21,312 nucleotides of DNA from a virus. How positions within the stretch are numbered: the stretch's first letter is position 1; each line of letters starts with the position of its first letter. The notes under the pieces were generated by a model that saw nothing but the letters and a program-made list of their open reading frames with translations, ran no database searches and was not told the DNA's origin. Shown one piece after another: positions 1,372 through 16,646 of the stretch. The stretch lies in UHGV virus genome UHGV-1468037; one strand, written 5' to 3'. The translations under genes and the position numbers were made by a program.

Positions 1372-1854
1372 CTATCTGGTCAGGGTGTCGTATTGTTTTT
1401 CGCAGACTCTTCCGGCTTCGGCTGCCCGGTCAGCATACTCTGCCAGTTGTCTGTTTCTCTCGAGAGATTTGCTGAGCACGTCGGCAAGCAAAACTCCGGT
1501 GTCTGCGGCTGACGTCCCAGCGCCGACAATGGCGTTATACTGCCTGAGCTGCTCACGGATGGCAAAGAGTTGTTGCTGCAACCGGCCAGCGCGAGCGGCA
1601 GCATCAAGAGAATCATTGCGCGCCTGGTCGATCCTCTGCTGCGCTTCACGTTCATTGATCGATTTCTCCTGTTCGTAGTGCTGACGAACTATCTCATCTT
1701 CAGCTTTGCGGTCTTCCTTCGCCTGCGCATACCCGGCATCGTACTGACGACTGCCGTGTGCATTCCAGGCTACAACTCCTGATATGACCAGAACAGCAAG
1801 CATCGCCATGATAACCAACTGTTTCCAGTATGCTTTTGCGAATGCCCAGATCAT
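1372..1854 (-). CDS. Rz-like inner-membrane spanin (i-spanin)
   Basis: 160 aa. N-terminal TM helix followed by a long charged coiled-coil region. Start overlaps the endolysin stop (ATGA). Contains a second embedded lipoprotein ORF in another frame. Confidence 0.8.
1380..1655 (-). CDS. Rz1-like outer-membrane lipoprotein spanin (o-spanin), embedded in Rz
   Basis: ORF fully inside Rz in a different frame. Lipobox LAGC after a basic/hydrophobic signal. Pro/Ser-rich mature part. True start may be the internal Met at 1616. Confidence 0.65.
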   Translation of the reverse strand: MNVKRSRGSTRRAMILLMLPLALAGCSNNSLPSVSSSGSITPLSALGRQPQTPEFCLPTCSANLSRETDNWQSMLTGQPKPEESAKNNTTP

Positions 1855-2480
1855 ACCGCCAGCACCTTACTGGCAGTGATGTATCGCGCGCGCCGGTCAT
1901 CAATGCCGTTCCGGCCACCATTGATAAGCAGAGTTACACGTGCAATATCTCCGGTATACTTCATGCAACCTTTGCTGGAGAAGAACCACGCCGCGCTACG
2001 AGCCGCGTATTCGTCCTGCGCCAACAGTTCAGGATTCTCCAGCAGGTCAACTTTCAGACCGTTTCCACAGTCACGATAGTTATTCAAACCGGTAATCTGG
2101 ATAAGCCCGCGCCCACGGTAATTCCAGCCATCACCAGGGGCATTGTTCCCCATGCGTTTGCTGTACACCAGATTTGCGATCGCGCGCTGGCGCTCGAGTG
2201 GCAATGGTGGTTCACCAGCACGGCGACCAAGTGCATTAGCCTGCCCCTGAGTGAGACGCCCAGCCCGAACGAAGTTAGCCAATCCGGTTACGCTGTAGTT
2301 GAAATTTTCCTGCAACCGGGTGAAGCCTCCAGACTCATGCCCGACCTGAGCAATAAACATTGCCTGATCTTCTGGTTTGCTGATACCAAACTCTTTCATC
2401 GCAGAAGTTATATGCGAGAACCAGCGAGCGGCCAGTTCCTCGCTGATACCAGCAGCTCGCTGGAATTGTTTAATCTCCAT
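1851..2480 (-). CDS. Endolysin, glycoside hydrolase family 19 (chitinase class I-like)
   Basis: 209 aa. Motifs typical of GH19 phage endolysins ([36 protein letters not shown]). Flanked by membrane-protein genes and Rz/Rz1. Confidence 0.8.
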
Positions 2481-2778
2481 GTTTAGACCTCGTTATTTTG
2501 AAAATCTGAACTACGTTACCGCGCGTTTTAATGACTGCAGCAAGCATGACAGCGTTGATAATGACCTCAGATAAATCCACAACCATTGGCGTGCGTAACC
2601 AGATTGCATAAGCGACACGAACTGGAATGCTGGCCGCAGCAACAATCAGGAAATAAGCAAGCCACCCACCCCATCGCCTGTGTTGAGAACCGTTTCTCCG
2701 AAATGTGGCAACTCGAACTGCTATACCGGCGCAAATAACCGCATTGGTGATAAGCAAAAAAAGCTCATGAGTTACCAT
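2470..2778 (-). CDS. Small membrane protein of lysis cassette (holin or antiholin candidate)
   Basis: 102 aa with 2-3 hydrophobic helices. Overlaps the endolysin start and the upstream membrane-protein gene. Confidence 0.55.
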
Positions 2779-3178
2779 CGTCTTTTCTCCCCGGAATTAA
2801 CTCGCGTGGATTATCGGAACGGTGATAGAGCCAGATCCCAATTCGCACAGCGACGATTGCTGACACAAATGCACCGGCAGAGAAAACAATCCCTTTCTCG
2901 AAAGAATCCTGTGTGATTGTAGGGATCAGGCTGGCTATGCCGATAAGAATTGATGCTGCTGGTTTGTAGAATAGAAGTCCGCAGAGAAAGCTAAGCATCG
3001 ACAAGAGCACGCGACGACGAATGGGATACTCTACCGCAGAGGTAACAAAAATCACCGCCCCAGCCAAAGACCCCAAAGCAACCTCAGGAGGAACTCCTGC
3101 TATCACTGCCGCCAAAGAACTCATGCTAAGCCACTGATTTAAAGTTTCACTGGTTAGTTGAGCTGACATGTTTTCCAC
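2765..3178 (-). CDS. Multi-TM membrane protein of lysis cassette (holin candidate)
   Basis: 137 aa with about 4 predicted TM segments. First gene of the lysis cluster, downstream of an AT-rich intergenic region. Confidence 0.55.
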   Translation of the reverse strand: MENMSAQLTSETLNQWLSMSSLAAVIAGVPPEVALGSLAGAVIFVTSAVEYPIRRRVLLSMLSFLCGLLFYKPAASILIGIASLIPTITQDSFEKGIVFSAGAFVSAIVAVRIGIWLYHRSDNPRELIPGRKDDGNS

Positions 3179-3575: not shown

Positions 3576-6551
3576 TTACATTGACATTAATATAAACATG
3601 GCTAATTCGTCATAACGAATTCCGTAGCGTCCTCCTGCTTTTTTTACAAGAATCATATCTCCTGTTTTATATTGAGAATAAATTTTCTCACCTGTATCAG
3701 GATCTGTGCTCTCTTCAGTTATCACCTCTTCATCCCATACGTCAGGCCATTCATCGTAACACCAAAAAGCATATTGCTCAGGGTTTAAACCATGCTTTCT
3801 AAGAATATCCCCTACGGTTTGAGCGCCAACGCCAAAATGATACCTGGACGACTCAATTCCTTTGTGATTAATTGAGTCATTAAATTTAAATTTATAGATG
3901 ACTGACTTTATTTCAATAGCGGCATTACGCTCTGCATTAAGAATATCATATCTTGTTTTAAGAGTTTCATCTGACGTATTGATTGACCCGGTTCCTGCAT
4001 AGATAACAGAGCATCTGTTTGATGGCTGTCCAATAGCTTTAACATTATCATCAACAGGAGCTATTTTATTAGCATCTGCCAACCACCAGTCTGTTCCATC
4101 AGCGTGACCGATTCTTACTCTTATCCCACTTCTAATATTTAAACTTCCAGTATTGCTCTGTAAATTACAATCTCCTGACGTTGGTCCAAGCAGTACAGTT
4201 TTACCAACACCACATACTACTCTGGCATTTCCTTTTTGTGATACGAGTCTTGACTCACCTCCTGACTGCTCAGGAAGAGATTTATGGTCTATAAATGCAT
4301 CGCGGGGGTTAAATACACCGTCTCCAGAATTATATCTTCCTCCTGTATAGTTGTTAAATACAGGACCCCAGTCAACGCCATTGCCTTCAGAGCACCCGAC
4401 CATTCTAAGCACTCGAGTATTCCCTGCTGCATATGGTAATGAGCTTGTTGATTGCCGGGAAGCTATCATACGTGCTCCATAACCAATAGCATTACCACCA
4501 TTTATAGTTACATATGCTTGCTGGCTTTCGAAATATGTACTGTAAAAGTTCATATTTCCACAGTCATGCAGATGAATAAGAACATCATCCCATCCCTGAA
4601 TGGTTCCCGCATGTACCTGTACACCGCGAACTGGTTCCCCTGAAACCTCCATACACTCTGATGGCCGGCTGAATGGCTGAGACAGGTATTGCGATGTGGC
4701 AAGCAGATGTGTGTGGTGATACAGGCTGGTAATGTAGCAATCGAAAAATTGCGTTCCCGCCATACCAAAGTTATCTATGTCATTTCGCCGTATAGTAGAA
4801 CCTACTGTTGCCTCAGAAGCGTTAGACACTCCAGTAAATACTAACTTATCACCGGATACGGATAATCCTGAATAAGTGAAATTCCTGCCTCCAGATCTTA
4901 AAACCCCGGACGTTTCGAAGGTGTGGCTTGCTGACCATGGGATTTCGATAGTGCTGGACGTTACCGCTGTAATTCGGAATACATCATGGGCGCGGATCGA
5001 AATACCCTTGAATCCCTGGAATCTACAGTGATAATAGTTTTCATCCTCGCCCTGAGCGGCCAGCGTGCCAGATACAGGAATGTTCGTTTTTAAAAGTGCC
5101 GTCTTGCGCCAGTATCCAACCACCTGCAAATTGCGGTATTCATTGCCAAAAGACGCACGTGACCAAATACCTACATCCCACTCATCGCCAAGACCGGTAT
5201 TTGCAATGTCTTTATAACCATCCAGCCCATTGAAATATGGAACAACACGAAAGTTCTCAAGGCGAACACATCCTGTCTCAGGCATCAATATTGCGGCAGA
5301 GAATGGTTTAAGCGTGGCTCTTGTAGTCCCATTAGCATCACCGTTAGTAAAATCCAATAAATCATATGATGACGCAGGTGCCGTTGTTGTATACGGGTCT
5401 TCGGAAGATGGATTAGAAACCACACCACCACTAACATCCATATTAGAAACACAATCTACAGTATATTTTTTATTTCCTACCCCGTACATCAGGAATGTGG
5501 TCCCTGTGGTAATATCAGGAGCAAATGTTGCAGTATATCCAGAGACCCATTTGCCCACACCAAGACCAATTATCCCACCACCAGAAACAGGTGTTAACGT
5601 ATCCGTTATTACATACGCATTATCAGTACCATAAATAACCTTTCCTGTGTTAATGGCAGCTTGCCACGCGGCCCAGTCTATTGACTGAGATAATGAGTCA
5701 ACAAAAGGATATAAGGATTTTGCTTCAGAAATTGAAGAAAACCTCTCAGATAATGGATGATATTTCCCATCCCCAATTGCTCCGAATTGTTTTACATTTA
5801 AGAAAAGAGCATTGTTTTCATGCTGAGTTATAGTTACAGCCCAGGCAAATGGCTGCCTTACACCAATTAATGCATCACCTTTTCCTTCTCCTGCGCTAGA
5901 TAATTGCAGAAGAACATCTGCGGCACTGCCAGAAGGCACAGGTACACCTATAGGTTTACCATTGACGATACCAATGACAGTTTCTTCCAGTAAATGAACT
6001 GGAGGAAGTGGTTCAATAAAATTATCTGGAACCCGTAATGTCCTGTTAATATTCACATTAACAATATTATCAACATAATTCTTTGTAGCTGCATCTTGAG
6101 GCTTGGAAGGATCGCGCAAATTGCGGATGTAATTATTCAAAGCATCGTAATAGTTTGCCACAAATGATGGTTTGCGCAGCGCCAGGCTAAACCAACTGCG
6201 GACTTGCTGTATCAGCATCGTCAGCTTATCTAACGCGTCTTCATGCACCTCAGCGAAAAACTTTCCCTGATTTCGCAGATCAGTTTCCTGCGTAACCGGT
6301 AGCTCTCGTGATATAGAAATCTGATAACCGTTAGCTAACGCCTTCGACAGAATTACATTACCGCCATTATATCCACCAGCCCCAGTGACAGTGTAATCAG
6401 TATCAAGAGCCAGCACAGCGATATTTTCGTCAAGGTCAACCACCTGTACTGCCAGATCAGATTCCTTGAAAACCCTAAAGGTATACGGAAATGATGTCGT
6501 AACGCCGTTACCTGTGTATTCGTTGTGGTCAACTTCGGTTGAGACCGTCAT
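3576..6551 (-). CDS. Tail fiber/tailspike with conserved N-terminal virion-attachment domain, central probable glycanase region, and C-terminal intramolecular chaperone (peptidase S74-like) domain
   Basis: 991 aa. N-terminus (TGNGVTTSFPYTFRVFKESDLAVQV...EVHEDALDKLT) resembles the conserved N-terminal domain of podovirus tail fibers/tailspikes. C-terminus (IYKFKFND...HFGVGAQTVGDIL...GGRYGIRYDEL) resembles the self-cleaving chaperone domain. GGAG RBS 8 nt upstream of the start. Confidence 0.75.
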   Translation of the reverse strand: MTVSTEVDHNEYTGNGVTTSFPYTFRVFKESDLAVQVVDLDENIAVLALDTDYTVTGAGGYNGGNVILSKALANGYQISISRELPVTQETDLRNQGKFFAEVHEDALDKLTMLIQQVRSWFSLALRKPSFVANYYDALNNYIRNLRDPSKPQDAATKNYVDNIVNVNINRTLRVPDNFIEPLPPVHLLEETVIGIVNGKPIGVPVPSGSAADVLLQLSSAGEGKGDALIGVRQPFAWAVTITQHENNALFLNVKQFGAIGDGKYHPLSERFSSISEAKSLYPFVDSLSQSIDWAAWQAAINTGKVIYGTDNAYVITDTLTPVSGGGIIGLGVGKWVSGYTATFAPDITTGTTFLMYGVGNKKYTVDCVSNMDVSGGVVSNPSSEDPYTTTAPASSYDLLDFTNGDANGTTRATLKPFSAAILMPETGCVRLENFRVVPYFNGLDGYKDIANTGLGDEWDVGIWSRASFGNEYRNLQVVGYWRKTALLKTNIPVSGTLAAQGEDENYYHCRFQGFKGISIRAHDVFRITAVTSSTIEIPWSASHTFETSGVLRSGGRNFTYSGLSVSGDKLVFTGVSNASEATVGSTIRRNDIDNFGMAGTQFFDCYITSLYHHTHLLATSQYLSQPFSRPSECMEVSGEPVRGVQVHAGTIQGWDDVLIHLHDCGNMNFYSTYFESQQAYVTINGGNAIGYGARMIASRQSTSSLPYAAGNTRVLRMVGCSEGNGVDWGPVFNNYTGGRYNSGDGVFNPRDAFIDHKSLPEQSGGESRLVSQKGNARVVCGVGKTVLLGPTSGDCNLQSNTGSLNIRSGIRVRIGHADGTDWWLADANKIAPVDDNVKAIGQPSNRCSVIYAGTGSINTSDETLKTRYDILNAERNAAIEIKSVIYKFKFNDSINHKGIESSRYHFGVGAQTVGDILRKHGLNPEQYAFWCYDEWPDVWDEEVITEESTDPDTGEKIYSQYKTGDMILVKKAGGRYGIRYDELAMFILMSM

Positions 6552-6654
6552 GTTAAATCTCCAGATAGTCGCAGCACCCGTTGCGCCGCATATCCGGTTA
6601 TTCTATTACCTGAAAAACCACATATGGATAGAAATACTGTGAATATGAATAGAT

Positions 6655-6671
6655 ATTACCTTTCGGGTAAT
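6655..6671. promoter_or_regulatory. Dyad motif copy 1 (ATTACC TTTCG GGTAAT)
   Basis: Perfect inverted half-sites TTACC/GGTAA with 5-bp spacer; one of four copies in the island; 76 bp upstream of the 85 aa gene. Confidence 0.5.
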
Positions 6672-6707
6672 TTGCAAAACGTGCTGGATAGCAAACAAAT
6701 TATTTGC

Positions 6708-6727
6708 TACTGTATAAATATACAGTT
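6708..6727. promoter_or_regulatory. LexA box (SOS operator)
   Basis: TACTGTATAAATATACAGTT: perfect CTGT-N8-ACAG with an AT-only spacer; about 20 bp upstream of the 85 aa gene start codon (6747). Confidence 0.75.
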
Positions 6728-6746
6728 ATTGCATGGAGAAGATAAG

Positions 6747-7004
6747 ATGCAGCAGTATCACTATCCACTGGAAGACGGATTTACCGAAAGGATTCACACG
6801 CCGGGAGGCGTCAGGTCACTGGTGGAGGGATCGCACTTGATGAAATTACTCCGGGATCTCGATAAGGATGGATTTAATGTCGATGGCCCACTTGCCGAAC
6901 TGACTGCACTGATTAACTACGTCACCAGCTCACAGATGTCTATGCGGGATCTGCAAACACATCTCGACTATTGTGCCGAACAATTACGAAAACAAACCCG
7001 GTAA
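6747..7004 (+). CDS. Small antirepressor-like protein; standalone paralog of the C-terminal domain of the downstream Ant-like protein
   Basis: 85 aa from ATG 6747 (GGAGA RBS). The upstream part of ORF 6624..7004 is rejected because it contains the LexA box and dyad site. Aligns by eye with the Ant-like C-terminus (LM.LL..L..DG..V.G..AELT ... RD.QTH..Y). Confidence 0.65.
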   Translation: MQQYHYPLEDGFTERIHTPGGVRSLVEGSHLMKLLRDLDKDGFNVDGPLAELTALINYVTSSQMSMRDLQTHLDYCAEQLRKQTR

Positions 7005-7010
7005 ATTTAA

Positions 7011-7028
7011 AGGCCGCAAGAGCGGCCT
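7011..7028. terminator. Bidirectional terminator between convergent genes
   Basis: Stem AGGCCGC / GCGGCCT with loop AAGA, T-rich on the plus side and A-rich before. Overlaps the stop codon of the minus-strand 242 aa gene. Confidence 0.55.
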
Positions 7029-7755
7029 ATCGTTTCGCTTTGTGCTCATCCCAGCACGTTTTGCACCATGCCATTAAGCCGTCCGCATTTTGATTATTAG
7101 GGTAAAAGCTGGTTCGTTTTCTGCGGACATTACAAATTGGGCACCACTTCATATGGCGTGTATTCTTTGGGCCATCGAGACACCTTGCACACCATTTAGT
7201 CAATCCATCTGGATTTTTTGACGATTTCCTGAATTTTTCATATGGAAGGTTTATTCTGCATCGCAAGCACTGCTTGCTACCACTTGAAACTCTGTTAGCT
7301 GATTCTTCTTTTGGCAGCGATACAGAAGGTATTCTTGCTGGCTCTGATATTGCCTGAGGTGCTTTTTTAGATGACTGAGACGATATGTCATCACCAGGGA
7401 ATCTTCCATGATATGCCGGACGCGTTGACACTCCAGGTGGAATCTCAGCTGTAAACGGCTTTGGCTGAATCAGTTGCCTCTCTTTTGCTAACTCCTGCTG
7501 TTTATAATATGTCTGGATTACCGCACTATCATAAGCAGGAGGTGCGGAAATATTAGGCGCATTACCTCCAGTTTTTTGAAACTGAGTAGAGGTGTGTTCT
7601 ATCACCTGTGTACGATTAATCGTTATCTCCCCATCTTCGGTCTTTATCGTTTTGTTATGATTAACGACCGTACGATCAGAGATCTTAGTCTTGTTCTGGT
7701 TGATAACGTAAATAATCACCGCAACCACACCAACAACTATCCAGAAAACTTCCAT
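7027..7755 (-). CDS. Membrane-anchored protein with two C-terminal zinc-ribbon (CxxC-N19/20-WCxxC) motifs; function unknown
   Basis: 242 aa. N-terminal TM helix (VFWIVVGVVAVIIYVI) followed by basic residues. Low-complexity linker. Two repeats: CLRC...WCARC and CPIC...WCKTC, in a basic context. GAGGA RBS. Divergent from the ant-like gene. Confidence 0.7.
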   Translation of the reverse strand: MEVFWIVVGVVAVIIYVINQNKTKISDRTVVNHNKTIKTEDGEITINRTQVIEHTSTQFQKTGGNAPNISAPPAYDSAVIQTYYKQQELAKERQLIQPKPFTAEIPPGVSTRPAYHGRFPGDDISSQSSKKAPQAISEPARIPSVSLPKEESANRVSSGSKQCLRCRINLPYEKFRKSSKNPDGLTKWCARCLDGPKNTRHMKWCPICNVRRKRTSFYPNNQNADGLMAWCKTCWDEHKAKR

Positions 7756-7774
7756 TGCTTTTCCTCACAATAAC

Positions 7775-7791
7775 ATTACCTTAAAGGTAAT
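7775..7791. promoter_or_regulatory. Dyad motif copy 2 (ATTACC TTAAA GGTAAT)
   Basis: Perfect 17-bp palindrome in the 5' UTR of the 242 aa gene, about 20 nt from its start codon, and at the far end of the ant-like leader. Confidence 0.5.
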
Positions 7792-7867
7792 ATCTTGCTT
7801 TCAGGTGATCAAGCGTTAAACGCAATCAACCAAATACGGTTGATTTTAATGTTTCTTCGCGCTTATC

Positions 7868-7884
7868 ATTACCTTTACGGTAAA
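7868..7884. promoter_or_regulatory. Dyad motif copy 3 (ATTACC TTTAC GGTAAA)
   Basis: Same TTACC-N5-GGTAA architecture, in the divergent intergenic region between the 242 aa gene and the ant-like gene. Confidence 0.45.
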
Positions 7885-7918
7885 TTTACATTGCACTCCT
7901 CTTGTGCCATAGTAATCG

Positions 7919-8049
7919 GGCACTGGCAAAATCCAGTGCCGGGATTGGCGTCCCGGATTACTACAGAGGCACATATGCCGCATAAGCGGTTTTTTTATGT
8001 GTAAAGCGCACCTATTCTATGGTGGGCTGTGTGGGGGCACCGAAAGGTG
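7919..8049 (+). promoter_or_regulatory. Structured leader upstream of ant-like gene (multiple hairpins including a terminator-like hairpin plus T7 run)
   Basis: Hairpins GGCACTGG/CCAGTGCC (7919-7940) and CCGGGA/TCCCGG (7939-7956) overlap and are mutually exclusive. CCGC-ATAA-GCGG followed by TTTTTTT (7978-7996). GCACC-GAAA-GGTGC (8037-8049). Confidence 0.4.
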
Positions 8050-8149
8050 CGCCGGGTCCTTTGTAGCCGGTTACGCCAACCCTGCACAGTTCACCACCAA
8101 CCGATTGGCGTCGGTAGTGGTGATTAACCTAACTACAAAGGTGATCACT

Positions 8150-8836
8150 ATGACTGCTAACGTAACCCCATCTGTTTTTCATTTTGAATCAGAAGCAACC
8201 ATTCGAGCCATTGTTATTGATGGAAATCCTTGGTTTGTTGCCAAAGACGTTATTAAAGCTCTTCAACTGACAAACCCCACTATGTCAATAAAATCTCTTG
8301 ATGATGATGAAAGGGCTAAATTTAACTTAGGCCGTCAAGGCGAAACCAATATTATCAACGAGTCAGGCCTCTACACACTGATCCTCCGCTGCCGCGACGC
8401 AGTGACACCAGGCACTATCCCCTACCGCTTTCGCAAATGGGTTACAGGTGAGGTTCTTCCTCAGATCCGCCGCACCGGAAGCTACATTAAAAACTCGCTC
8501 CCGCAGGAAGAGCGCATAAAGATGGTTGCCGACCAGGTAGCCAACGCCACGGCGTCAGCAGTAATGCAGGCGATGAAGATAGAGAACAAAACCTACAGTG
8601 CCCCACTGAAGCCAGGCTACCGCAGTCTGATTCATTCGCCGTCGGGTGTTCTCGGCCTGACGGAGAACTCATTGCTGATGAATCTGCTGAATCAGTTGCA
8701 GGACGACGGGCATGATGTATCGGGCGCGGCGGCGGAACTGACCACCATGTTCTGCTACATCGTCGGTGTGAGCAAATGCCTGCGTGATATCCAGACGCAC
8801 GCGGAGTACATCAACGACAAGGCAGGGTTCTTCTGA
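8150..8836 (+). CDS. Antirepressor-like protein with N-terminal BRO-N domain and C-terminal antirepressor-type domain
   Basis: 228 aa from ATG 8150 (AAGG 8 nt upstream). N-terminus matches the BRO-N pattern (IDGNPWFVAKDV...INESGLYTLIL...FRKWVTGEVLPQIRRTGSY). The longer ORF from 7997 would include the hairpin leader and lacks an RBS. Confidence 0.75.
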   Translation: MTANVTPSVFHFESEATIRAIVIDGNPWFVAKDVIKALQLTNPTMSIKSLDDDERAKFNLGRQGETNIINESGLYTLILRCRDAVTPGTIPYRFRKWVTGEVLPQIRRTGSYIKNSLPQEERIKMVADQVANATASAVMQAMKIENKTYSAPLKPGYRSLIHSPSGVLGLTENSLLMNLLNQLQDDGHDVSGAAAELTTMFCYIVGVSKCLRDIQTHAEYINDKAGFF

Positions 8837-8908: not shown

Positions 8909-8925
8909 ATTACCTTAAAGGTAAA
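8909..8925. promoter_or_regulatory. Dyad motif copy 4 (ATTACC TTAAA GGTAAA)
   Basis: Core identical to copy 2. Abuts the Shine-Dalgarno AAGGAGG of the 55 aa gene. Confidence 0.5.
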
Positions 8926-8936
8926 GGAGGCGCGAT

Positions 8937-9104
8937 ATGACAGCGTTGAAAAATCGTACTCAGCACAATGAACAAGCCAAGCAATGCTGGGATGTCATTG
9001 GAAAAGTTATGCTTGGCCGCGCAAGCAAAGAGCGCGACAAGGATATGGTTTACCAGACAGGAACATCTTTCAGCGACTTCAAGGCGGCATTTCGCTCCAA
9101 ATAG
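8937..9104 (+). CDS. Small basic protein (55 aa), unknown function
   Basis: Not in the ORF track (<60 aa). ATG 8937 is preceded by a consensus SD AAGGAGG with 6-nt spacing. Translated by hand: MTALKNRTQHNEQAKQCWDVIGKVMLGRASKERDKDMVYQTGTSFSDFKAAFRSK. TAG stop at 9102-9104. Confidence 0.55.
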   Translation: MTALKNRTQHNEQAKQCWDVIGKVMLGRASKERDKDMVYQTGTSFSDFKAAFRSK

Positions 9105-9124: not shown

Positions 9125-9565
9125 TTGAAGTTTAACATTAGAATATCTAATAGTTTTCTAAATGGGGAAAGCAACACCCCTTTCGCTGTAGACGGACCTT
9201 TCCTTACTGACGATGAAATAAAAATCATACAAAGGTTTTTAGAAGATGTTGCCAATGGAAGGGCGCTTGTTGGAAAAAACAAGCCATCGTGGGTTGATGA
9301 TAACCATGATAAAATTCCCGGCTCAGACAATTATGAGCAAGAGAATTATTGGCATTATCATTGTGGGCCAACATGGTATCCAAACACATTTAAGAATTAT
9401 ACCATTAACTTAAATTTCAACCCTGGCGGAATGCATTCTAATGAATGCATTCATTATGCAAAAAATGATAATGAAATTGTCGTTGTTGGATTTTCAAGAG
9501 AACACATACCTTTCCTTTCATCAGATGGAAACGACAATCCGCTTTTTTATGATGAAGAAGAATAG
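9125..9565 (+). CDS. Hypothetical protein (146 aa) with acidic C-terminus, unknown function
   Basis: TTG start with AGGAG 6 nt upstream; 20 nt after the stop of the 55 aa gene, so probably an operon. Strongly AT-rich codon usage. No signal peptide. Followed by a strong terminator. Confidence 0.6.
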   Translation: MKFNIRISNSFLNGESNTPFAVDGPFLTDDEIKIIQRFLEDVANGRALVGKNKPSWVDDNHDKIPGSDNYEQENYWHYHCGPTWYPNTFKNYTINLNFNPGGMHSNECIHYAKNDNEIVVVGFSREHIPFLSSDGNDNPLFYDEEE

Positions 9566-9656: not shown

Positions 9657-10508
9657 TCACTGTGCAGTTTTCGCTGATCGATTTTCAGCTCTAAATTCAA
9701 GAACCGTTTCAATATTTCTTTCCTTCAGCATATCAATAACATTTTTATTCATTTGACTATCACTGGTTAATAACTGGTAAACGTTGCTTCTCTCTTTATC
9801 AGAGTTTTCTTTAACAGCTGCTTTGCATGCCAAATGCTTATTGAAATTTTCTACATCGCTAGTACAGGAATTTACGGCTGCTGATGAAATATCAGACGCT
9901 GAAGAAACACCGTCATCCAAACGTTTTATAGCATTTTCTATACATGAGTTAAGGGAATAAACGACAACTGAGCGATACCCTTCAGACGCACACCATTCTA
10001 AATTTCTTGAAGGATCGAGTGGTTTTACTTCGCTGGATTGAATTAACTTGTCAAAAACTGACTTATATTCAATCTGTTTTTTATCTATAGCCCATACTTC
10101 AGTAGCTGATTTATAATTCCCCGTATGCCTATTAACATCAAATCCATGTTTTATAAGCAAATCTGCCCATGAAAGATTTATTGATTCATTGTTATGAGGC
10201 CATTTTCCTGTCAGAACCGCCCCCATAGACCCCATATATCCGCCATATGATGGTATAGCACCATGGCTCAGTAACTTCTCTGCAACCACAGGGCAATTAA
10301 TTACATAAGAGGCGTAAAGCCCATTCCATAAAGCCCCTCTATAGTAATCGCCACGATTAGGTTCTTTTAAGTCGATAGCCTTTGATAATTGTTCGCACGT
10401 TTTGCATGCATCAAAGTTATCCTTATTGCATTGCAATGAACTGGCAGCTGTAGGATTTACAGAGACTATTGAAAGCACTATGCCAAAAAACAAATTTATT
10501 TTTTTCAT
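9657..10508 (-). CDS. Secreted cysteine-rich protein (283 aa), unknown function; accessory (moron) gene
   Basis: Sec-type signal peptide MKKINLFFGIVLSIVSVNPTAAS. Many Cys in the mature part. AT-rich codon usage unlike the neighbouring virion genes. Start codon 1 nt after the stop of the 1129 aa gene, so likely translationally coupled. Confidence 0.7.
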   Translation of the reverse strand: MKKINLFFGIVLSIVSVNPTAASSLQCNKDNFDACKTCEQLSKAIDLKEPNRGDYYRGALWNGLYASYVINCPVVAEKLLSHGAIPSYGGYMGSMGAVLTGKWPHNNESINLSWADLLIKHGFDVNRHTGNYKSATEVWAIDKKQIEYKSVFDKLIQSSEVKPLDPSRNLEWCASEGYRSVVVYSLNSCIENAIKRLDDGVSSASDISSAAVNSCTSDVENFNKHLACKAAVKENSDKERSNVYQLLTSDSQMNKNVIDMLKERNIETVLEFRAENRSAKTAQ

Positions 10509-10509
10509 C

Positions 10510-13500
10510 CTATTTCATCTGCTCTTCAACTTTATTTAGTAATGGTGATATCGCCCACAGATTCTGAAAAGGTAGCATTTTACGGACAGCGTGGGTTTGC
10601 TGGCTGTCAAATTCTCCGTTAAGTACACCATTTGCAACCGTCGCGGCATCACCGCCAAGATCAAAGGTAGGACCAAGTAAAGCACCAATAGCATTACGAC
10701 TCTGAAACCTTGATACCGGAGGCGCACCAAACATCGCGCCAAGACCAAACCTACCGCCGCTTATGTTCTCAACGGTATTCAGCGGCTCAGAGAGCCAGCC
10801 AAGCATTCCGCCCCGGTCGATCCCCTCTTTCACAAGGTTATTCCAGCTGTAGTCGATATCGCGACCGCTTAACTTCTGTTTCATCATATAGACCATTGAG
10901 CCAAGCGCAATCGTGCCAAGCGCACCAAGATAGAATGCAGCATCGCCCTGCTGGATACCAGATACCAGCACCCTGTTATGCTGTGCGAAGATAAACGTTT
11001 TGAACTGCGTGATCATCTTCCAGCCTTCTTTACTAAAAAACAGCGGTGTATCACCTACGCCAGGCGTTACAATCACTGAGTCTACATCTTTCAGCACTGC
11101 AGACTGGAAAATCTCTCTAGCGAAACGGTCATCCCACAGATGACTATGCCCGGTTAACAGCCCGTCCATATCCTCTCCGTGCTTCCCGAATTGCTCCCCG
11201 ATTCGGCGCAGAACATCTTCATTGATGCCGACCTGTGCCATCTTCCGCATTTCACTTTTGGAGAGCGTGCCACCAGCAGAAACTTGGCGAGCCGCGTCAA
11301 GTATCCTCGACTGCACTATCATCCCAGACCATGATTTAAGTGCGCTGTTCCACTGATTCATCAGCGTCCAGTTACCGAATTTCTGCGTCATCCAGTTCAG
11401 ACCTCGCTCAGCGGCGCTTCTCCGGCTATAGGGGTCAGTAAGATCCGCTATAGCCTTTGTACGCGTAGACAGGACATAATCAAGCCCAACTGCCATTTCT
11501 CGCAAATCCCTGGTTGCAATTTTCACTGAGTCCATATTTTTAAGCATGCTTACCATTGGTCCGAGAGATTTTCTCAGGCCATGCTGCATCATCGGTCGCA
11601 TCAGATCAGTTGCAGCGGAGACAGTCATTCCACCAAGCAAACGGAGGAAGTTAATATTCCTAGCAACTCGCCCGGCACGAACAAAGAAACTGCGTGGATC
11701 TTGAGGTGCACCGTAAGTACCAAGCAGTCGATCACGCATAGCCGTAATATCCCTAATATCAGCCTCCCGTTGCTTCTCAAGAACTGCACGTCGTTTAGGT
11801 GTTTTAGCCTCTTTTATTAGCCGGGTATATTCCTCACTAACCTGACGGATTTGCTCCCCCATATCTTTACGGCCAAACTGCGCAGTCAGCTCAATTTCTG
11901 GTGCCACCTGCCGGAGATAACTTTCCATGATGTAGTTAACATCTGATTCAAGAAAATCTTCTATACGCTCATCAGGAATAAGCAGCGTTCTGCTTTTAGT
12001 GAAACCAGCCCGACCAACGAGTCTCTCTGGGATAATATCGGCTGGTACAAGCCCGGAAGGTGCGCCTATTATTTTATTCACGATCTCGTCAGCAGCGTCC
12101 TCTGCTTCCTCTCGGGATAGAGGCTCCATCTGCTTCAGTGCTCGCTCGCGGCTTGCATTCAGCCTTGTGGTTGAATTTGCCCGTTTTTGCAGTCGGCGAA
12201 GCTCAGAACGATATTTCCGTGGATTATCCAGCAACTCCATATGGCGCTGATAGACAGGAAGCTCACTCTTTGCCTGCGCTATATCATCAAGGCGTGTTTT
12301 AAGGTCAGAGCTTTCTTTCATCATTCTTGCCTGAAGTTTTTCTGATGAAGTCTCGGCCAACTCTTTTTCTATTCTTGTAAGACGCGCCTGTGTGTCAGTC
12401 TCCTGAGATATAAGCTTATTTCGTTTATCCAGTTCTTCCATGAGTAGAATTTTTTTACCAGACCATTTCTCCGCTTCAGCGATTTCACTAGCGAGAGCAT
12501 CAGCGCGCGGTGCTGATTCCTCTGCAGTTTTTAGCAATGAATTTATCTTTTCAATTCGCTGACCTGCTTTGTCAGCACCTTTGGCACTAATCCCTTGTAT
12601 CCAGTTGGCAATTCGCCCTCTGAATTCAGTGCGGTCGGAAAGTATCTTATCGAACTTATAAATGCGGGGAAGATAACTCTTCGCCGTCACGACATCGATA
12701 TCCTCAGGAAGGATCCCCAATTCCTGCATACGGGCTTTTGTGGTCTCAAAAATGGGGCGGATTCTGGCGGCTGCTTGTGAAACCTCAGGAATATCACTCT
12801 GATCACCACGGCGCATAGCCATGCCAACAGCTTCATTGAAATCAATAAAGTTCATCCTCTTCACGCCGCGGGCGCTGACAGATTTGCTGTACTGCTGGTA
12901 AGCATCACGAGTAGCTTCCATCTGCTTATAAAGCATGGCGTCGTATTGCTTAATCTTAGTCTCGACTGCCGTAAACGTAGCCAACCCCTCATCATTTTTG
13001 GCGAAGAAATAGTTATTTTCGGCAAGCTGCTGGTTAATCTGACGGGAGACAAGAGATGGTGATTGCGCCAAGCGGCCAGCAGGAGTGACACTCAACGTTT
13101 TGTTAGCAAGTCCAAGTCCAGCGAGCTGTTCCTGATCGAGTGTGGTATTGAAAACCTGAGCTGCACCAATGCTTTGAGGAGAATCCATACCTCGCAAATG
13201 ATTACCTACTGAGTTAACCACTGCCTCGCGCGCGCTAGGTCCAGCAAGTAGCTGTGCACCAGCACCAAGGATCCCACCAACGAGAGCATCAACAACAACG
13301 TTCGATACGCTCTCCATCGGTGAGCGAGCTTCCTGAGTGGCCTGTAATGCGGCTTCTGATACTCCCCCACCAGCAGCATTCGCCAGGGCAAAACGCCCTG
13401 CCGTCTCAGCAATACTTCCTCCACGCGCTACCGCCCCTACAGGGATGAACATTGCAGCCACATTAACCGGGTCTATCATTCCCATTGCTAAGCTTGAAAT

Positions 13501-13899
13501 AGTACCAGCACCACCCATTTCAGATAGATATTCTCTATCTGTTCTTTGCTTATCGATTCGATGTTTAATTGCCATTGTTTCTTCATGCGAACCGGAGTTG
13601 ATAAACGAATCTGCAAAATCTTCATAGCCTTTAATATCTGCTGCATCGTTATCAAATGGGTTATATCCTTCAACCCTGTCAAACTGACTGAAAGGAGCAC
13701 TGGCAATAAAGCTACCCAGCGTGTTATCTATACGAAATGCTGCTTGTCTAGACCTTTGAACGCGTTGATCACTGGTAAATGGGTTCACAGCAGAAAGCAA
13801 AGAAGGTGTTTCCATATAGAAATTACTGTCATCAGGTGCTGCTATTTGCTGAATATCCTCGCCAAGCAACTCTTTAGGATCCTGTTCATATATCGGCAT
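10510..13899 (-). CDS. Large internal virion/ejection protein (T7 gp16-position analog)
   Basis: 1129 aa. Last and largest of four consecutive overlapping genes following the tail-tube genes. Gly/Ala-rich and coiled-coil segments. No recognisable enzymatic motif seen by eye. Confidence 0.6.
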   Translation of the reverse strand: MPIYEQDPKELLGEDIQQIAAPDDSNFYMETPSLLSAVNPFTSDQRVQRSRQAAFRIDNTLGSFIASAPFSQFDRVEGYNPFDNDAADIKGYEDFADSFINSGSHEETMAIKHRIDKQRTDREYLSEMGGAGTISSLAMGMIDPVNVAAMFIPVGAVARGGSIAETAGRFALANAAGGGVSEAALQATQEARSPMESVSNVVVDALVGGILGAGAQLLAGPSAREAVVNSVGNHLRGMDSPQSIGAAQVFNTTLDQEQLAGLGLANKTLSVTPAGRLAQSPSLVSRQINQQLAENNYFFAKNDEGLATFTAVETKIKQYDAMLYKQMEATRDAYQQYSKSVSARGVKRMNFIDFNEAVGMAMRRGDQSDIPEVSQAAARIRPIFETTKARMQELGILPEDIDVVTAKSYLPRIYKFDKILSDRTEFRGRIANWIQGISAKGADKAGQRIEKINSLLKTAEESAPRADALASEIAEAEKWSGKKILLMEELDKRNKLISQETDTQARLTRIEKELAETSSEKLQARMMKESSDLKTRLDDIAQAKSELPVYQRHMELLDNPRKYRSELRRLQKRANSTTRLNASRERALKQMEPLSREEAEDAADEIVNKIIGAPSGLVPADIIPERLVGRAGFTKSRTLLIPDERIEDFLESDVNYIMESYLRQVAPEIELTAQFGRKDMGEQIRQVSEEYTRLIKEAKTPKRRAVLEKQREADIRDITAMRDRLLGTYGAPQDPRSFFVRAGRVARNINFLRLLGGMTVSAATDLMRPMMQHGLRKSLGPMVSMLKNMDSVKIATRDLREMAVGLDYVLSTRTKAIADLTDPYSRRSAAERGLNWMTQKFGNWTLMNQWNSALKSWSGMIVQSRILDAARQVSAGGTLSKSEMRKMAQVGINEDVLRRIGEQFGKHGEDMDGLLTGHSHLWDDRFAREIFQSAVLKDVDSVIVTPGVGDTPLFFSKEGWKMITQFKTFIFAQHNRVLVSGIQQGDAAFYLGALGTIALGSMVYMMKQKLSGRDIDYSWNNLVKEGIDRGGMLGWLSEPLNTVENISGGRFGLGAMFGAPPVSRFQSRNAIGALLGPTFDLGGDAATVANGVLNGEFDSQQTHAVRKMLPFQNLWAISPLLNKVEEQMK

Positions 13900-16646
13900 T
13901 ATTTGCCCCCTGCGTATATATTGCTCGGAAGGTAATTGGCTGAACCATAACCGAATGGTTTGGTCAGATCTGGAGGAGTATATCCATCTTTATTGCTGAA
14001 CTGCGGCAGCGGATTGCCTTCTCTCCGCACTCTAGCCTCATCAACACGCTGTTGCTGGAACTGAATGGTTTGCCTGTACATTGGAGATGTCAGCTGATCC
14101 GGCTTGAAACGAACAGGGAGACCATTTTCTCCAATATAATTTCTCGGTTCTATCGCTCCGTTTGCGTCAGGCTGTAAAACCATAACAGCATAACTCCTAT
14201 CCCTTGCCGTAAGGCCATCAGAAACAAGTATTAAGTCCGTATCACTGCGAGGACCGCCAAAGGATTTTGATTTAAGCTCGCGTTTTTCCTGCTCCCACTG
14301 CCCCTGTATCCAGTTACCAGCACCATTATTTACTCCGTACAATGCCTCAGGTGCATACTTCATAACCTCTGCTTTGCCATTAACTGTAGAAACTCCCCAG
14401 GTGGTTCTGATCATGGCATTGGTCATTTTCTCAGCCTGTTCTGCATCGCCACCTGTCTGTACAAAGTTAGCATCGTAAATTGTCTGGTAATCTCGCTGAT
14501 AGGCCGCATTTGATTTTCCTGGATCGGTAATATCCGGAGACCACGAACCAAAGGAAGTCAGACTGCTGGCGTTATTTTGTGCAGCAGTTGCCCTCGCCGC
14601 GACATATTTTTTGTCTCGCATGGCAGTGGAAAGCATCTGTTTCATTCGGTCATCCTGTTGGAACACCTGGCTGTAAGCCATATCAACAGCCTTATCCTCC
14701 GGCACGCCAGCGCGGGAATAATCGTAAACCTTGCCGTAAAATGCCATCGTACTTTTATCAAGTGTTGCCGCTGCCGCCGGATTATTATCGAATAACTGAC
14801 CGTAGAATTTTGCCATCGGGACAACCAGCGCAGGATCTCTTGATGTTGCTCCACTGTTAAGCATTGTTTTAACCTGAGTTGGTATCATGCCGCTTTTAGT
14901 TGTGACGGTGACCAGTGTATTGATGCTCTGCGGATCAGATATGGAAAACGAAGGCGCGATATCCTGCGCGAAATAACGGTCTACCGCTGCCTGATTGTTT
15001 TTGTCGTTAGGGTCCAGCGGGAAGTTATTTTGCATTGAAGACACGAACCTGTTTCTTCCCTGCTGAATCTCCCACTCCCTATCCATCTCTTTAAATTTGG
15101 CCTGCATTTTCTCCCAGCGTTGCTGGTTAGCTGCAAATCCAAGAGCGTTTGGATCCTGTGGACGTAAACGTTCAAGAATGTCTTGTCGTCCTTCTGGAGT
15201 GAGGTCTTTAGCGGCACCAATGACACCTCCATATTGTATCTGCGCCTGCATATCCTTCCACTTCATAGCGCCAATGCGCGGACCATTGGCCCGGATAAAA
15301 TCGTCCTCAGAAGGTAACTTCTCAGGTTTCAATCCTTCATCAAGGGCTGAATATGCATCTTTAACTACGGTGCTAAGCTGGTCCGCATACTGCTGGCGGT
15401 ACTGATTTCTCAGCTCATTAGCCTGCCTCAATGCCTGTATTTGCATTTGAGGGCTCATAGCGTCAAATGCCGCATTGCCCGTATAACGCTTAGGTGAATC
15501 AAGGTTAGTTAGACCAAGGGCTGCCGAGATACCAGTTTCAAGCTGTTCGGTGCTATAAGGCATACTGCCATTTTCGTGTTTAATAATCCCAGCACATAAA
15601 GCAGCTAGTGTCTTTGGGTTAGAGATATCAAGCTGATCATTCTCCCCAACACCAAGCTCACTACACAATGCCCTAATATAAGCATCAGTATTATTACCAT
15701 CACTAGCCGGAGCATAGCGATTAACAATCTCGCTAACGGTGTCATAGCCTTGACGCTGGTAAGACAACATATTTTTACCCAACGCGCGGATTCCATGCTC
15801 AGGGGTAGCAAACGTTGCAAAACGTCCATCGCTACCGATCTGACCTTCCCACGGGTTAGATTTGCTCGCTTCAATATTGCCAGGGTTATTATTACGTAAA
15901 CCACGAGCATCCAATGAATTACCATGTGATATTGCACGACTCACACCATCAAGATCCCCTGGCTCTCCATTAACCTGAAGAAACTCGTTGTATTTTTGAG
16001 CGATATTTCCTATCCATGCTTGCTGCCCCATTTGTTCCTTGAGCTGAGTTTTCTGCTGAACACGCCACTCATCAGGAAGCCCATGCGCATCAGCGTATTG
16101 ATCAATAGATTCAAATCGCTGCTTGGCTAAATCGACAAATGCTTGGTTATCGCTATATAGCCCCGCAGACTGAGTGACAGCCAATGCATTTCCTGACAAA
16201 TACGTTTGATCTTGGAATTGCTGAAACTGCCCAACTTCATATCGACGTGCCTGATTGTAATAAGACTGCATAGACTGCTGGAGTTGAAAGGATAATTTAT
16301 TCCTTTCCTCACTTTCAGGAATTGAGCCTAATAATGCCTGAGCCCTTTCCTGCATATTTTTCATAACAGCGTCACTCTGACCAAGAGCGTTTTTACCCTG
16401 TTTAGAAATCAGCCCATTTTCAGGGTTGTTAATCTGGTCATCTGCAAATTGGTTAAATTGCAGTAACGCCTCCTGGGCCATAGCAACATTCGCTTTCTGC
16501 CTAGCTTCACCATATGCCACCGCATACTGATCTGCGACATTCGCCAGCACCTGACCTGCTTGAGGAACATCGAAGGTCTGAAAACCACCGGTTTGCACAC
16601 CACGACTTTGCACCTGGCGTCCGGATGTAGTAGGAACAACAGGCAT
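13899..16646 (-). CDS. Large internal virion/ejection protein (T7 gp15-position analog) with an embedded conserved motif block
   Basis: 915 aa. Start/stop overlaps with neighbours. Contains the block ...GLRNNNPGNIEASKSNPWEGQ...GRFATFATPEHGIRALGKNMLSYQRQGYDTVSEIVNRYAP..., which I recall as recurring in phage virion proteins, possibly a wall-acting domain. Confidence 0.6.
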   Translation of the reverse strand: MPVVPTTSGRQVQSRGVQTGGFQTFDVPQAGQVLANVADQYAVAYGEARQKANVAMAQEALLQFNQFADDQINNPENGLISKQGKNALGQSDAVMKNMQERAQALLGSIPESEERNKLSFQLQQSMQSYYNQARRYEVGQFQQFQDQTYLSGNALAVTQSAGLYSDNQAFVDLAKQRFESIDQYADAHGLPDEWRVQQKTQLKEQMGQQAWIGNIAQKYNEFLQVNGEPGDLDGVSRAISHGNSLDARGLRNNNPGNIEASKSNPWEGQIGSDGRFATFATPEHGIRALGKNMLSYQRQGYDTVSEIVNRYAPASDGNNTDAYIRALCSELGVGENDQLDISNPKTLAALCAGIIKHENGSMPYSTEQLETGISAALGLTNLDSPKRYTGNAAFDAMSPQMQIQALRQANELRNQYRQQYADQLSTVVKDAYSALDEGLKPEKLPSEDDFIRANGPRIGAMKWKDMQAQIQYGGVIGAAKDLTPEGRQDILERLRPQDPNALGFAANQQRWEKMQAKFKEMDREWEIQQGRNRFVSSMQNNFPLDPNDKNNQAAVDRYFAQDIAPSFSISDPQSINTLVTVTTKSGMIPTQVKTMLNSGATSRDPALVVPMAKFYGQLFDNNPAAAATLDKSTMAFYGKVYDYSRAGVPEDKAVDMAYSQVFQQDDRMKQMLSTAMRDKKYVAARATAAQNNASSLTSFGSWSPDITDPGKSNAAYQRDYQTIYDANFVQTGGDAEQAEKMTNAMIRTTWGVSTVNGKAEVMKYAPEALYGVNNGAGNWIQGQWEQEKRELKSKSFGGPRSDTDLILVSDGLTARDRSYAVMVLQPDANGAIEPRNYIGENGLPVRFKPDQLTSPMYRQTIQFQQQRVDEARVRREGNPLPQFSNKDGYTPPDLTKPFGYGSANYLPSNIYAGGK

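Follow-up and report, generated by a model that had tools for sequence, protein, structure and literature searches.

A membrane-anchored tandem zinc-ribbon protein of Uetakevirus-like prophages: an accessory gene with a possible role in phage exclusion

The window analysed here is the whole stretch of 21,312 nt of the viral genome UHGV-1468037, read as one strand from 5′ to 3′. Its subject is a gene at 7027..7755 on the minus strand, here called ZnR, which encodes a protein of 242 aa with an N-terminal membrane anchor and two predicted zinc ribbons. The window is assigned to the right half of a Uetakevirus-like (epsilon15/phiV10-like) prophage that is integrated beside yfgI and has guaA at its far end; attachment at guaA has been described (PMC9782041). 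Read leftward, the genes of the ejection/internal proteins (−) are followed by orf283 (−), by orf146, orf55 and the gene of a Bro-N antirepressor (all +) and by ZnR (−), beyond which lie a gp19-like gene (+), the tailspike gene (−) and the lysis genes. Ejection proteins are encoded at 10510-13899 and 13899-16646. ZnR starts with an ATG preceded by a GAGGAA Shine-Dalgarno sequence, and its open reading frame (ORF) is found in the ORF listing as given in the initial annotation of this DNA.

The only hydrophobic segment of the protein comprises residues 2-19 (mean Kyte-Doolittle value 2.7), in agreement with the single N-terminal transmembrane (TM) helix proposed earlier. From hydropathy (maximum 2.7), charges and AlphaFold2, the predicted helix is placed at residues 3-19 (7699..7749, −); there is no second TM candidate, the next-best window of 17 residues having a mean value of 0.12. 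The AlphaFold2 model, which was run with a 30-sequence alignment, has the helix at residues 3-21 with a predicted local distance difference test score (pLDDT) of about 90, and E2, F4, W5, V7, G9, V10 and V11 are nearly invariant in homologue alignment A1. On the N-terminal side the helix is flanked only by Met-Glu (charge −1) and on the C-terminal side by a charge of +3; by the positive-inside rule the protein is predicted to be oriented N-out/C-in. Because of this rule and of the Cys4 sites described below, the ribbons would lie in the cytoplasm, as had been suggested. A Sec signal peptide or a periplasmic domain was considered and rejected: a positively charged n-region is missing, and Cys4 zinc sites imply a cytoplasmic location.

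The helix is followed by a juxtamembrane β-hairpin (residues 28-52; 7600..7674, −), recognised in the homologue alignments A1 and A2, where T39 and G42 are invariant and E43 and T49 nearly so, and in the AlphaFold2 model, which has strands at residues 29-39 and 42-52 (pLDDT about 73). Residues 57-157 (7285..7587, −) form the low-complexity linker that had been expected; it is rich in Pro, Ser, Ala and Gln, is predicted to be disordered (pLDDT about 45-65), varies in sequence and, from one homologue to another, is longer or shorter by as much as about 45 residues. The C-terminal part of the protein consists of zinc-ribbon module 1 (residues 161-195; 7171..7275, −) with C163, C166, C189 and C192, and zinc-ribbon module 2 (residues 203-237; 7045..7149, −) with C205, C208, C231 and C234, each modelled with a pLDDT above 90. 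The protein has exactly eight cysteines and all of them are found in two CxxC-N21-WCxxC modules. Thus, the two CxxC/WCxxC modules had been read correctly, but the spacing given for them, N19/20, had not: it is N21 in both. The cysteines of module 1 as well as D183, G184 and W188 are invariant in the homologue alignment, and those of module 2 are nearly invariant. The two Cys4 sets presumably bind zinc. Their surroundings are indeed basic, with a net charge of +14 and an isoelectric point of 9.9 for residues 158-242. Structure prediction supports both ends of the protein, the pLDDT exceeding 90 for the TM helix and for residues 160-242, and the homologue alignment has three conserved parts: the TM helix, an N-x-N-[KR]-T motif with the hairpin behind it, and the two ribbons.

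The family of the protein had not been recognised in the initial annotation. It is, however, catalogued: the protein matches PHROG 6762, labelled as of unknown function, from end to end (E 6.3e-149; residues 1-242 aligned to all 242 positions of the profile), and its ribbon can be referred to the Stc1-like/HNH-accessory superfamily. There is no above-threshold assignment in Pfam, NCBIfam or PADLOC. A homologue search of 5.8 billion proteins gave 33 clusters, all unnamed, from Escherichia, Superficieibacter, Enterobacter, Citrobacter, Salmonella, Serratia, Providencia, Pectobacterium and Buttiauxella. An exhaustive profile search gave 24 representatives at E <1e-30, and a second profile extended the homologues to Aeromonas, Acinetobacter and Morganella; a scan of species-representative genomes found only two ZnR loci. 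In Escherichia coli the gene is present in 129 of 5426 complete genomes (2.4%) and is annotated as hypothetical every time, and the Salmonella variant was found in more than 1300 blocks of the assembly index, a prevalence that is relevant to phage typing and to the phage therapy of Enterobacterales. Among the more diverged E. coli alleles, the ratio of non-synonymous to synonymous substitution rates (dN/dS) is 0.27-0.5. The allelic amino-acid changes in E. coli all fall into residues 12-173, most of them into the linker, and none into residues 174-242, which points to purifying selection concentrated on the ribbons. Together with the full-length PHROG match and the homologue clusters, this marks ZnR as a real, selected and conserved gene. 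In the literature that could be searched, nothing was found on the protein accession or on the combination of zinc ribbon, superinfection exclusion and transmembrane.

Two homologues have annotations that deserve comment. In that of Yersinia phage YeP5 (1900-2634) a (TK)n repeat (KTKTKTKTKTKTKTKT) directly follows the TM helix, and the annotated start, which was placed 29 codons upstream of the conserved MEIFW, is probably wrong. Another homologue was automatically annotated by JGI as "FtsZ-interacting cell division protein ZipA". ZipA of E. coli is likewise bitopic with an N-out/C-in orientation and has a flexible tether rich in P and Q that leads to a globular binding domain at the C-terminus, but the likeness is one of architecture and composition only and the ZnR protein has no FtsZ-binding domain; the annotation almost certainly arose in error from the N-terminal anchor and P/Q-rich linker that the two proteins have in common.

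The ribbon module itself is widespread. The family profile found 1739 representatives at E <1e-3, many of them with 3-10 tandem copies, and the matches follow the pattern C-x2-C-x3-[KP]-x3-F-x5-8-DG-x3-(W)C-x2-C. In some proteins the module is joined to a ResIII/DEAD or SF1 helicase domain, to HEAT repeats or to a winged-helix domain. Against the Stc1 family of Pfam (PF12898) the ZnR protein scores 21.1 bits, with a gathering threshold of 24.8, and sub-threshold matches to Stc1 are seen in 28 of 30 family members; the proteins that the family profile retrieves at E <1e-20 do pass the threshold, with 34-60 bits, and two ZnR homologues carry a precomputed PF12898 match. Side matches in PHROG are to endonuclease VII, HNH and primase families, in each case to their N-terminal parts, and involve module 1 (EndoVII) and module 2 (HNH, EndoVII). 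Among PDB sequences, a profile search returned only residues 3-41 of the HNH enzyme PacI (E 0.12), aligned to module 1. Structural matches were obtained to Hpy99I and PacI, and the Cys4 structural zinc site is also found in the ZnR protein, as two CxxC...CxxC sets; a Foldseek search of viral models (BFVD) gave mostly HNH endonucleases, plus zinc-finger proteins of giant viruses.

The prevalence of HNH endonucleases among the BFVD matches and the side matches to endonuclease VII and HNH families could mean that the ZnR protein is a cryptic or degenerate, membrane-anchored nuclease of the HNH/ββα-Me type that cuts incoming DNA. However, these matches are limited to the accessory Cys4 ribbon (residues 3-41 of PacI and the N-terminal parts of the PHROG profiles), a His or Asp-His between the CxxC pairs is missing from every aligned homologue, a D-H...N triad is not conserved, and none of the 30 members examined gives a Pfam HNH or Endonuclease_7 match. 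A nuclease of this kind is very improbable, and an active HNH enzyme was rejected, since the catalytic residues are absent. Because no His or Asp-His stands between the CxxC pairs and HNH and Endonuclease_7 matches are missing, the module is classed as the accessory Cys4 ribbon of nucleic-acid enzymes and not as their catalytic core. It shares with the N-terminal ribbons of PacI and of phage HNH/EndoVII enzymes, and with the Stc1 domain, the order CxxC, about 20 residues with F and DG, and (W)CxxC; the ZnR protein differs from the enzymes in that it is without a catalytic domain and has two modules fused to a membrane anchor. In a phage HNH nickase, removal of a similar N-terminal ribbon weakened activity and relaxed specificity (PMC3592412). 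It is reasonable to assume that the ribbons of the ZnR protein bind nucleic acid, an assumption strengthened by the charge of +14. A family labelled "Lar-like restriction alleviation" in PHROG matches module 2 (E 3e-9). Homology to Lar was nevertheless rejected: the Pfam family Lar (PF14354) gives no match to the ZnR family even at E up to 1, and the PHROG label rests on the shared ribbon.

ZnR is an accessory gene. In a blastn comparison with phiV10, which is without it, homology ends at 6998 and restarts at 7861, and phiV10 has about 29 bp in between; therefore, the gene travels on a cassette of 862 bp (6999..7860) that holds a terminator, the coding sequence, the promoter/operator region and a palindrome. 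The flanking tailspike-head/gp19-like DNA was found in 532 E. coli genomes, compared to 129 for ZnR. A GC-rich terminator-like hairpin at 7011..7028, called in the terminator scan, overlaps the stop codon of ZnR and is common to ZnR and the gp19-like gene, which are convergent. Having a terminator-like hairpin and a control region to itself, the gene has the make-up of a self-contained cassette of the accessory ("moron") kind. Among isolates, TL-2011b is the closest; there ZnR is intact and annotated only as a misc_feature. A pseudogene in TL-2011b was considered and dismissed, since its copy is 98% identical at the nucleotide level without gaps and the start of the tblastn match at residue 19 is an effect of the low-complexity filter. 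A holin/antiholin or spanin was rejected as well: the lysis cassette sits elsewhere, at 1372-3178.

The initial annotation had called the position of ZnR sieA-like, and the comparison with sieA of phage P22 holds for many podovirus-like prophages. In Uetakevirus-like and T7-like temperate prophages of Escherichia, Serratia, Providencia, Pectobacterium, Salmonella and Acinetobacter and in Citrobacter/Enterobacter-type loci, the gene is found between the ejection-protein genes and the tailspike or terminase genes. In divergent Uetakevirus-like prophages it is almost always encoded on the other strand, in many cases lies right against the last ejection gene and is usually convergent with it; the E. 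coli cassette is an inverted exception to this orientation. The T7-like temperate prophages of Salmonella and Acinetobacter have the same placement, and in the Acinetobacter prophage ZnR follows a gene of the Arc/Mnt family and faces a KilA-N gene. Other placements are found, too. In Aeromonas phage phiARM81mr the homologue is directly downstream of cI, on the same strand and with a gap of 18 nt, and in the IMG/VR locus L097 it is directly behind an S24 repressor gene, again on the same strand and with a divergent Cro-like gene. A copy in a siphovirus-like prophage is in the tail region beside the tape-measure gene and a putative lipoprotein gene, and a copy in Buttiauxella is part of a small cryptic island. 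All of these are typical positions of accessory genes. A 244-aa ORF in the same slot of a Pectobacterium prophage was rejected as a paralogue, as it has neither a TM helix nor cysteines.

The neighbourhood of the ejection genes, the basic domain and the early expression that is predicted below would also suit a membrane anchor for the DNA of the phage itself, which aids its entry, replication or packaging. The model for such a function is p16.7 of phi29, an early protein in which a spacer links the N-terminal TM helix to a cytoplasmic DNA-binding domain and which serves the replication of its own phage. The layout of the ZnR protein is the same, but the DNA-binding fold of p16.7 is unrelated and ZnR is dispensable and mobile among phage types: phiV10 and most Uetakevirus-like prophages of E. 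coli are without the gene, and phages of unrelated types have it, as does a cryptic island, and it also stands behind cI. We therefore hold a role as an anchor for the phage's own DNA to be improbable.

How ZnR is expressed may be read from its upstream region. A pattern search found a perfect dyad, TTACCTTTAAGGTAA, at 7776..7790, 21-35 nt upstream of the ATG; the dyad noted before, there placed in the 5′ untranslated region, is confirmed, and it is a putative repressor operator of ZnR. Perfect TTACC-N5-GGTAA sites occur four times in the window, at 6656-6670, 7776-7790, 7869-7883 and 8910-8924, and each heads a transcription unit; the number expected by chance is 0.44 even when one mismatch is allowed. 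Copies upstream of ZnR are also found in relatives, at about −36 to −22 in the Citrobacter-type, at −32 in the Superficieibacter locus and 20-34 nt before the gene in Pectobacterium, where the dyad is also present in the cro/cI region; the relatives in Providencia have TTAACC-N5-GGTTAA instead of TTACC-N5-GGTAA. The dyad occurs about 15 times in this prophage type, which is carried by strains 118UI and ML35, for example, and has WP_000836290.1 as its CI-like protein. In the prophage of strain 118UI it is found at 5589, 8754, 11756, 11818, 14125, 14173, 14885, 14947 and 20029; two of the copies are between the cro-like and the cI-like gene and two just after cI, ahead of the early-left operon, and further ones are before int, in the nin-like region, at the terminase genes and before the head operon. 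This distribution suggests that the dyads serve the main repressor as a dispersed set of operators, much as P1 has its C1 operators or mycobacteriophage L5 its stoperators.

A putative sigma-70 promoter of ZnR at 7784..7812 (−) consists of the −35 element TTGATC (7812-7807), a spacer of 17 nt and the −10 element TACCTT (7789-7784). It was read from the sequence; as a consensus promoter scan called no promoter for ZnR on the minus strand, we can only infer it, and it rests on a geometry that recurs in three lineages. The relatives have TTGACC-17-TACCTT (Citrobacter-type) and TTGACA-16-TACCTT (Pectobacterium) in different flanking sequences, and in all three lineages the −10 element is inside the left half of the dyad. 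If this promoter is right, the operator overlaps it, repressor bound there would occlude it, and ZnR should be expressed upon infection or induction and not in a stable lysogen; in this lineage, synthesis of the protein probably sets in right after infection and upon induction and is not constitutive in the lysogen. A role of the dyad-binding protein as an activator was rejected: the centre of the dyad is 28 nt before the ATG, and class II geometry would put the start of transcription inside the coding sequence. The ZnR copies of Buttiauxella and Salmonella have good promoters and no obvious operator dyad, and the copies linked to cI should be made in lysogens.

The repressor operator over the putative promoter in three lineages is the kind of wiring that is typical of an early gene, the same operator set being found at cro/cI, the early-left operon, int and the late units. 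It would fit an early-lytic factor for host takeover or counter-defence that is made in the absence of repressor and whose ribbons sequester a host protein at the membrane (a nuclease, a component of restriction or defence, a protease or a division factor are candidates) or shield the entering end of the genome. The match of module 2 to the restriction-alleviation PHROG could be taken in the same sense, but its label has no backing from Pfam Lar. Moreover, the homologues directly behind cI and the operator-free promoters imply expression in lysogens elsewhere, and the gene is kept in a cryptic island. Because these copies suggest that the protein is tolerated by lysogens, a takeover function that kills the host does not fit well, and we regard an early-lytic takeover or counter-defence factor as unlikely, although it has to be reckoned with.

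The antirepressor gene, from which ZnR is divergently transcribed as had been stated, does not start at 7997 but at 8150: it extends over 8150..8836 (+; Pfam Bro-N, E 8e-20), with the start taken from the PGAP annotation of strain 118UI, and is 394 nt away from ZnR. A second operator dyad (7869..7883; pattern search and promoter scan) is in the promoter region of its operon, where promoter-like sites were called at 7840-7869 and 7885-7913; the first of them abuts the dyad, and the pair recalls the arrangement of P51a and P51b in P1. Then follow an isrK-type small RNA/a1b1 target region at 7920..7996 (+; Rfam RF01394, 76.8 bits with a gathering score of 50), overlapped by an a1b1 target element (RF03163, 7907-7959) that with 45.1 bits is just below its gathering score of 46.7, and a C4 antisense RNA at 8015..8101 (+; RF01695, 79.5 bits with a gathering score of 45). 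The order of target element and C4 RNA ahead of a Bro-N antirepressor identifies this region by its matches as an immI leader of the P1/P7 type; the IsrK system of Gifsy-1 has been described (PMC4825925). A Uetakevirus immunity circuit with dispersed repressor operators and a P1-type C4/isrK antisense switch is apparently undescribed and should be tractable. Between the divergent promoters there is a palindrome, AATCAACC-N6-GGTTGATT, at 7824-7845, and the Citrobacter-type relatives have TGTGACATGTCACA and TTGAC-N9-GTCAA in the equivalent place; these palindromes may be sites of a second regulator or a bidirectional terminator.

Since ZnR is divergent from an antirepressor gene under isrK/C4 control and is often found near Bro-N, KilA-N, ANT or Arc genes, its protein might sequester a regulator of the immI-like region, be it the antirepressor, another regulator or a sigma factor, and thereby tune the switch between lysis and lysogeny. 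The association is not obligatory, however. There is no antirepressor gene adjacent to ZnR in the T7-like prophages of Salmonella (L098) or in the loci L086, L087 and L096, and across the ZnR loci compared no partner gene is conserved and no co-variation with any partner was found. A regulatory role of this kind is quite improbable.

The reading that we favour, if only tentatively, is that ZnR is a single-gene, membrane-tethered factor for superinfection exclusion or abortive infection, as its position and architecture had suggested at the outset. It is the best-supported one for a mobile and non-essential single gene that appears to be tolerated in lysogens and is found repeatedly beside the ejection genes of podoviruses. 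According to this model, the two N-terminal residues would be periplasmic, one helix would cross the inner membrane and the β-hairpin would sit at its inner face; the linker of about 100 residues would let the basic pair of Cys4 ribbons sweep the cytoplasm just beneath the membrane. There, the ribbons could capture the leading end of incoming foreign DNA at the spot of genome entry, or could seize the cytoplasmic parts of the conduit that a short-tailed phage builds from its ejection proteins. The membrane/hairpin module might then block translocation or disturb the membrane.

Two known systems are instructive for comparison. In P22, sieA is located between genes 16 and 9, and SieA acts on the ejection proteins gp16 and gp20 (PMC10883804). 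Like the ZnR protein, SieA resides in the inner membrane and is encoded by a single accessory gene with its own promoter that is present in a fraction of related phages (PMC10883804), and in both cases a short-tailed temperate phage has the gene between those of its ejection proteins and that of its tailspike. The differences are just as clear: SieA is membrane-embedded as predicted by TMHMM, has a cytoplasmic FxRYPxEAxxFNK motif and has no zinc ribbons (PMC10883804), whereas the ZnR protein has one hydrophobic segment and its sequence is without this motif; SieA is expressed from the prophage, whereas the putative promoter of ZnR is overlapped by a repressor operator; and ZnR is found in Uetakevirus-like or T7-like, not in P22-like phages. 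AbiP of Lactococcus and PdpSau of Staphylococcus aureus prophages, both of the AbiC/P group, are single-gene systems with an N-terminal TM anchor and a basic cytoplasmic domain, which in AbiP binds nucleic acid (PMC13064643, PMC10127798). The ZnR protein likewise has a single N-terminal TM helix and a basic C-terminal domain that is predicted to be cytoplasmic, and it shares with PdpSau that it is encoded by a prophage; but its tandem Cys4 ribbon contrasts with the OB-like fold of these proteins, and there is no sequence or PADLOC match. Defining features of the SieA, AbiP/PdpSau, HNH and Lar families were looked for and are absent, which places the ZnR protein outside each of them. It may still work like SieA or AbiP. 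It is tempting to speculate that ZnR is a repressor-controlled functional counterpart of P22 SieA made from different parts, in which tandem Stc1-like ribbons seize DNA or ejection proteins, in a distribution from Enterobacterales to Aeromonas and Acinetobacter; this more specific proposal is doubtful.

Several observations weigh against a role in exclusion. The main counter-argument is the dyad over the putative −10/+1 region, which predicts that the gene is silent in the lysogen, unlike sieA, rexAB and typical morons. Ribbons of the Stc1/LIM-like kind can have proteins instead of nucleic acids as their ligands, and DNA binding by the ZnR protein is for this reason only presumptive. An effector domain, either enzymatic or pore-forming, was not recognised in the ZnR protein, there is no homology to SieA (no match to a SieA-annotated PHROG, Pfam or NCBIfam family), and none of the PADLOC defence models matches. 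Finally, the interval between the ejection genes and the tailspike gene collects accessory genes in general, those of antirepressors, HicAB and YafO among them, and position alone is thus weak evidence.

If ZnR does turn out to be an exclusion or abortive-infection factor, its anchor, flexible tether and pair of zinc ribbons would add a new and simple architecture to the inner-membrane mechanisms that act at the entry stage of podoviruses, for which P22 SieA is, to our knowledge, essentially the sole case studied so far. It would also provide the first function for this ribbon in stand-alone form, outside the phage HNH/EndoVII nucleases and the helicases that it decorates.

Some of the genes around ZnR call for a short comment. 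The ORF of 126 aa listed at 6624-7004 is in fact an 85-aa gene similar to gp19 of epsilon15 (6747-7004, +). Its product corresponds to the C-terminal domain of the neighbouring Bro-N antirepressor as a protein by itself (41% identity over 78 aa, E 3e-16; phrog_450 is matched by both) and may modulate the antirepressor or compete for it. Behind the antirepressor gene follow orf55 (8937-9104, +), with an operator dyad 13-27 nt before its start codon, and orf146 (9125-9565, +; PHROG 5954); both are also found beside ZnR in Citrobacter/Enterobacter-type prophages. Directly after the last ejection-protein gene, 9657-10508 (−) encodes a protein of 283 aa with a Sec-type signal peptide (PHROG 6118), which may be a secreted/periplasmic accessory protein or a virion protein. 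The tailspike of 991 aa (3576-6551, −) has the conserved head-binding N-terminus of the epsilon15 type and, at its C-terminus, an endosialidase-chaperone (Peptidase_S74) domain; in the receptor-binding part it is unlike the tailspikes of TL-2011b and phiV10, a sign of another O- or K-antigen specificity.

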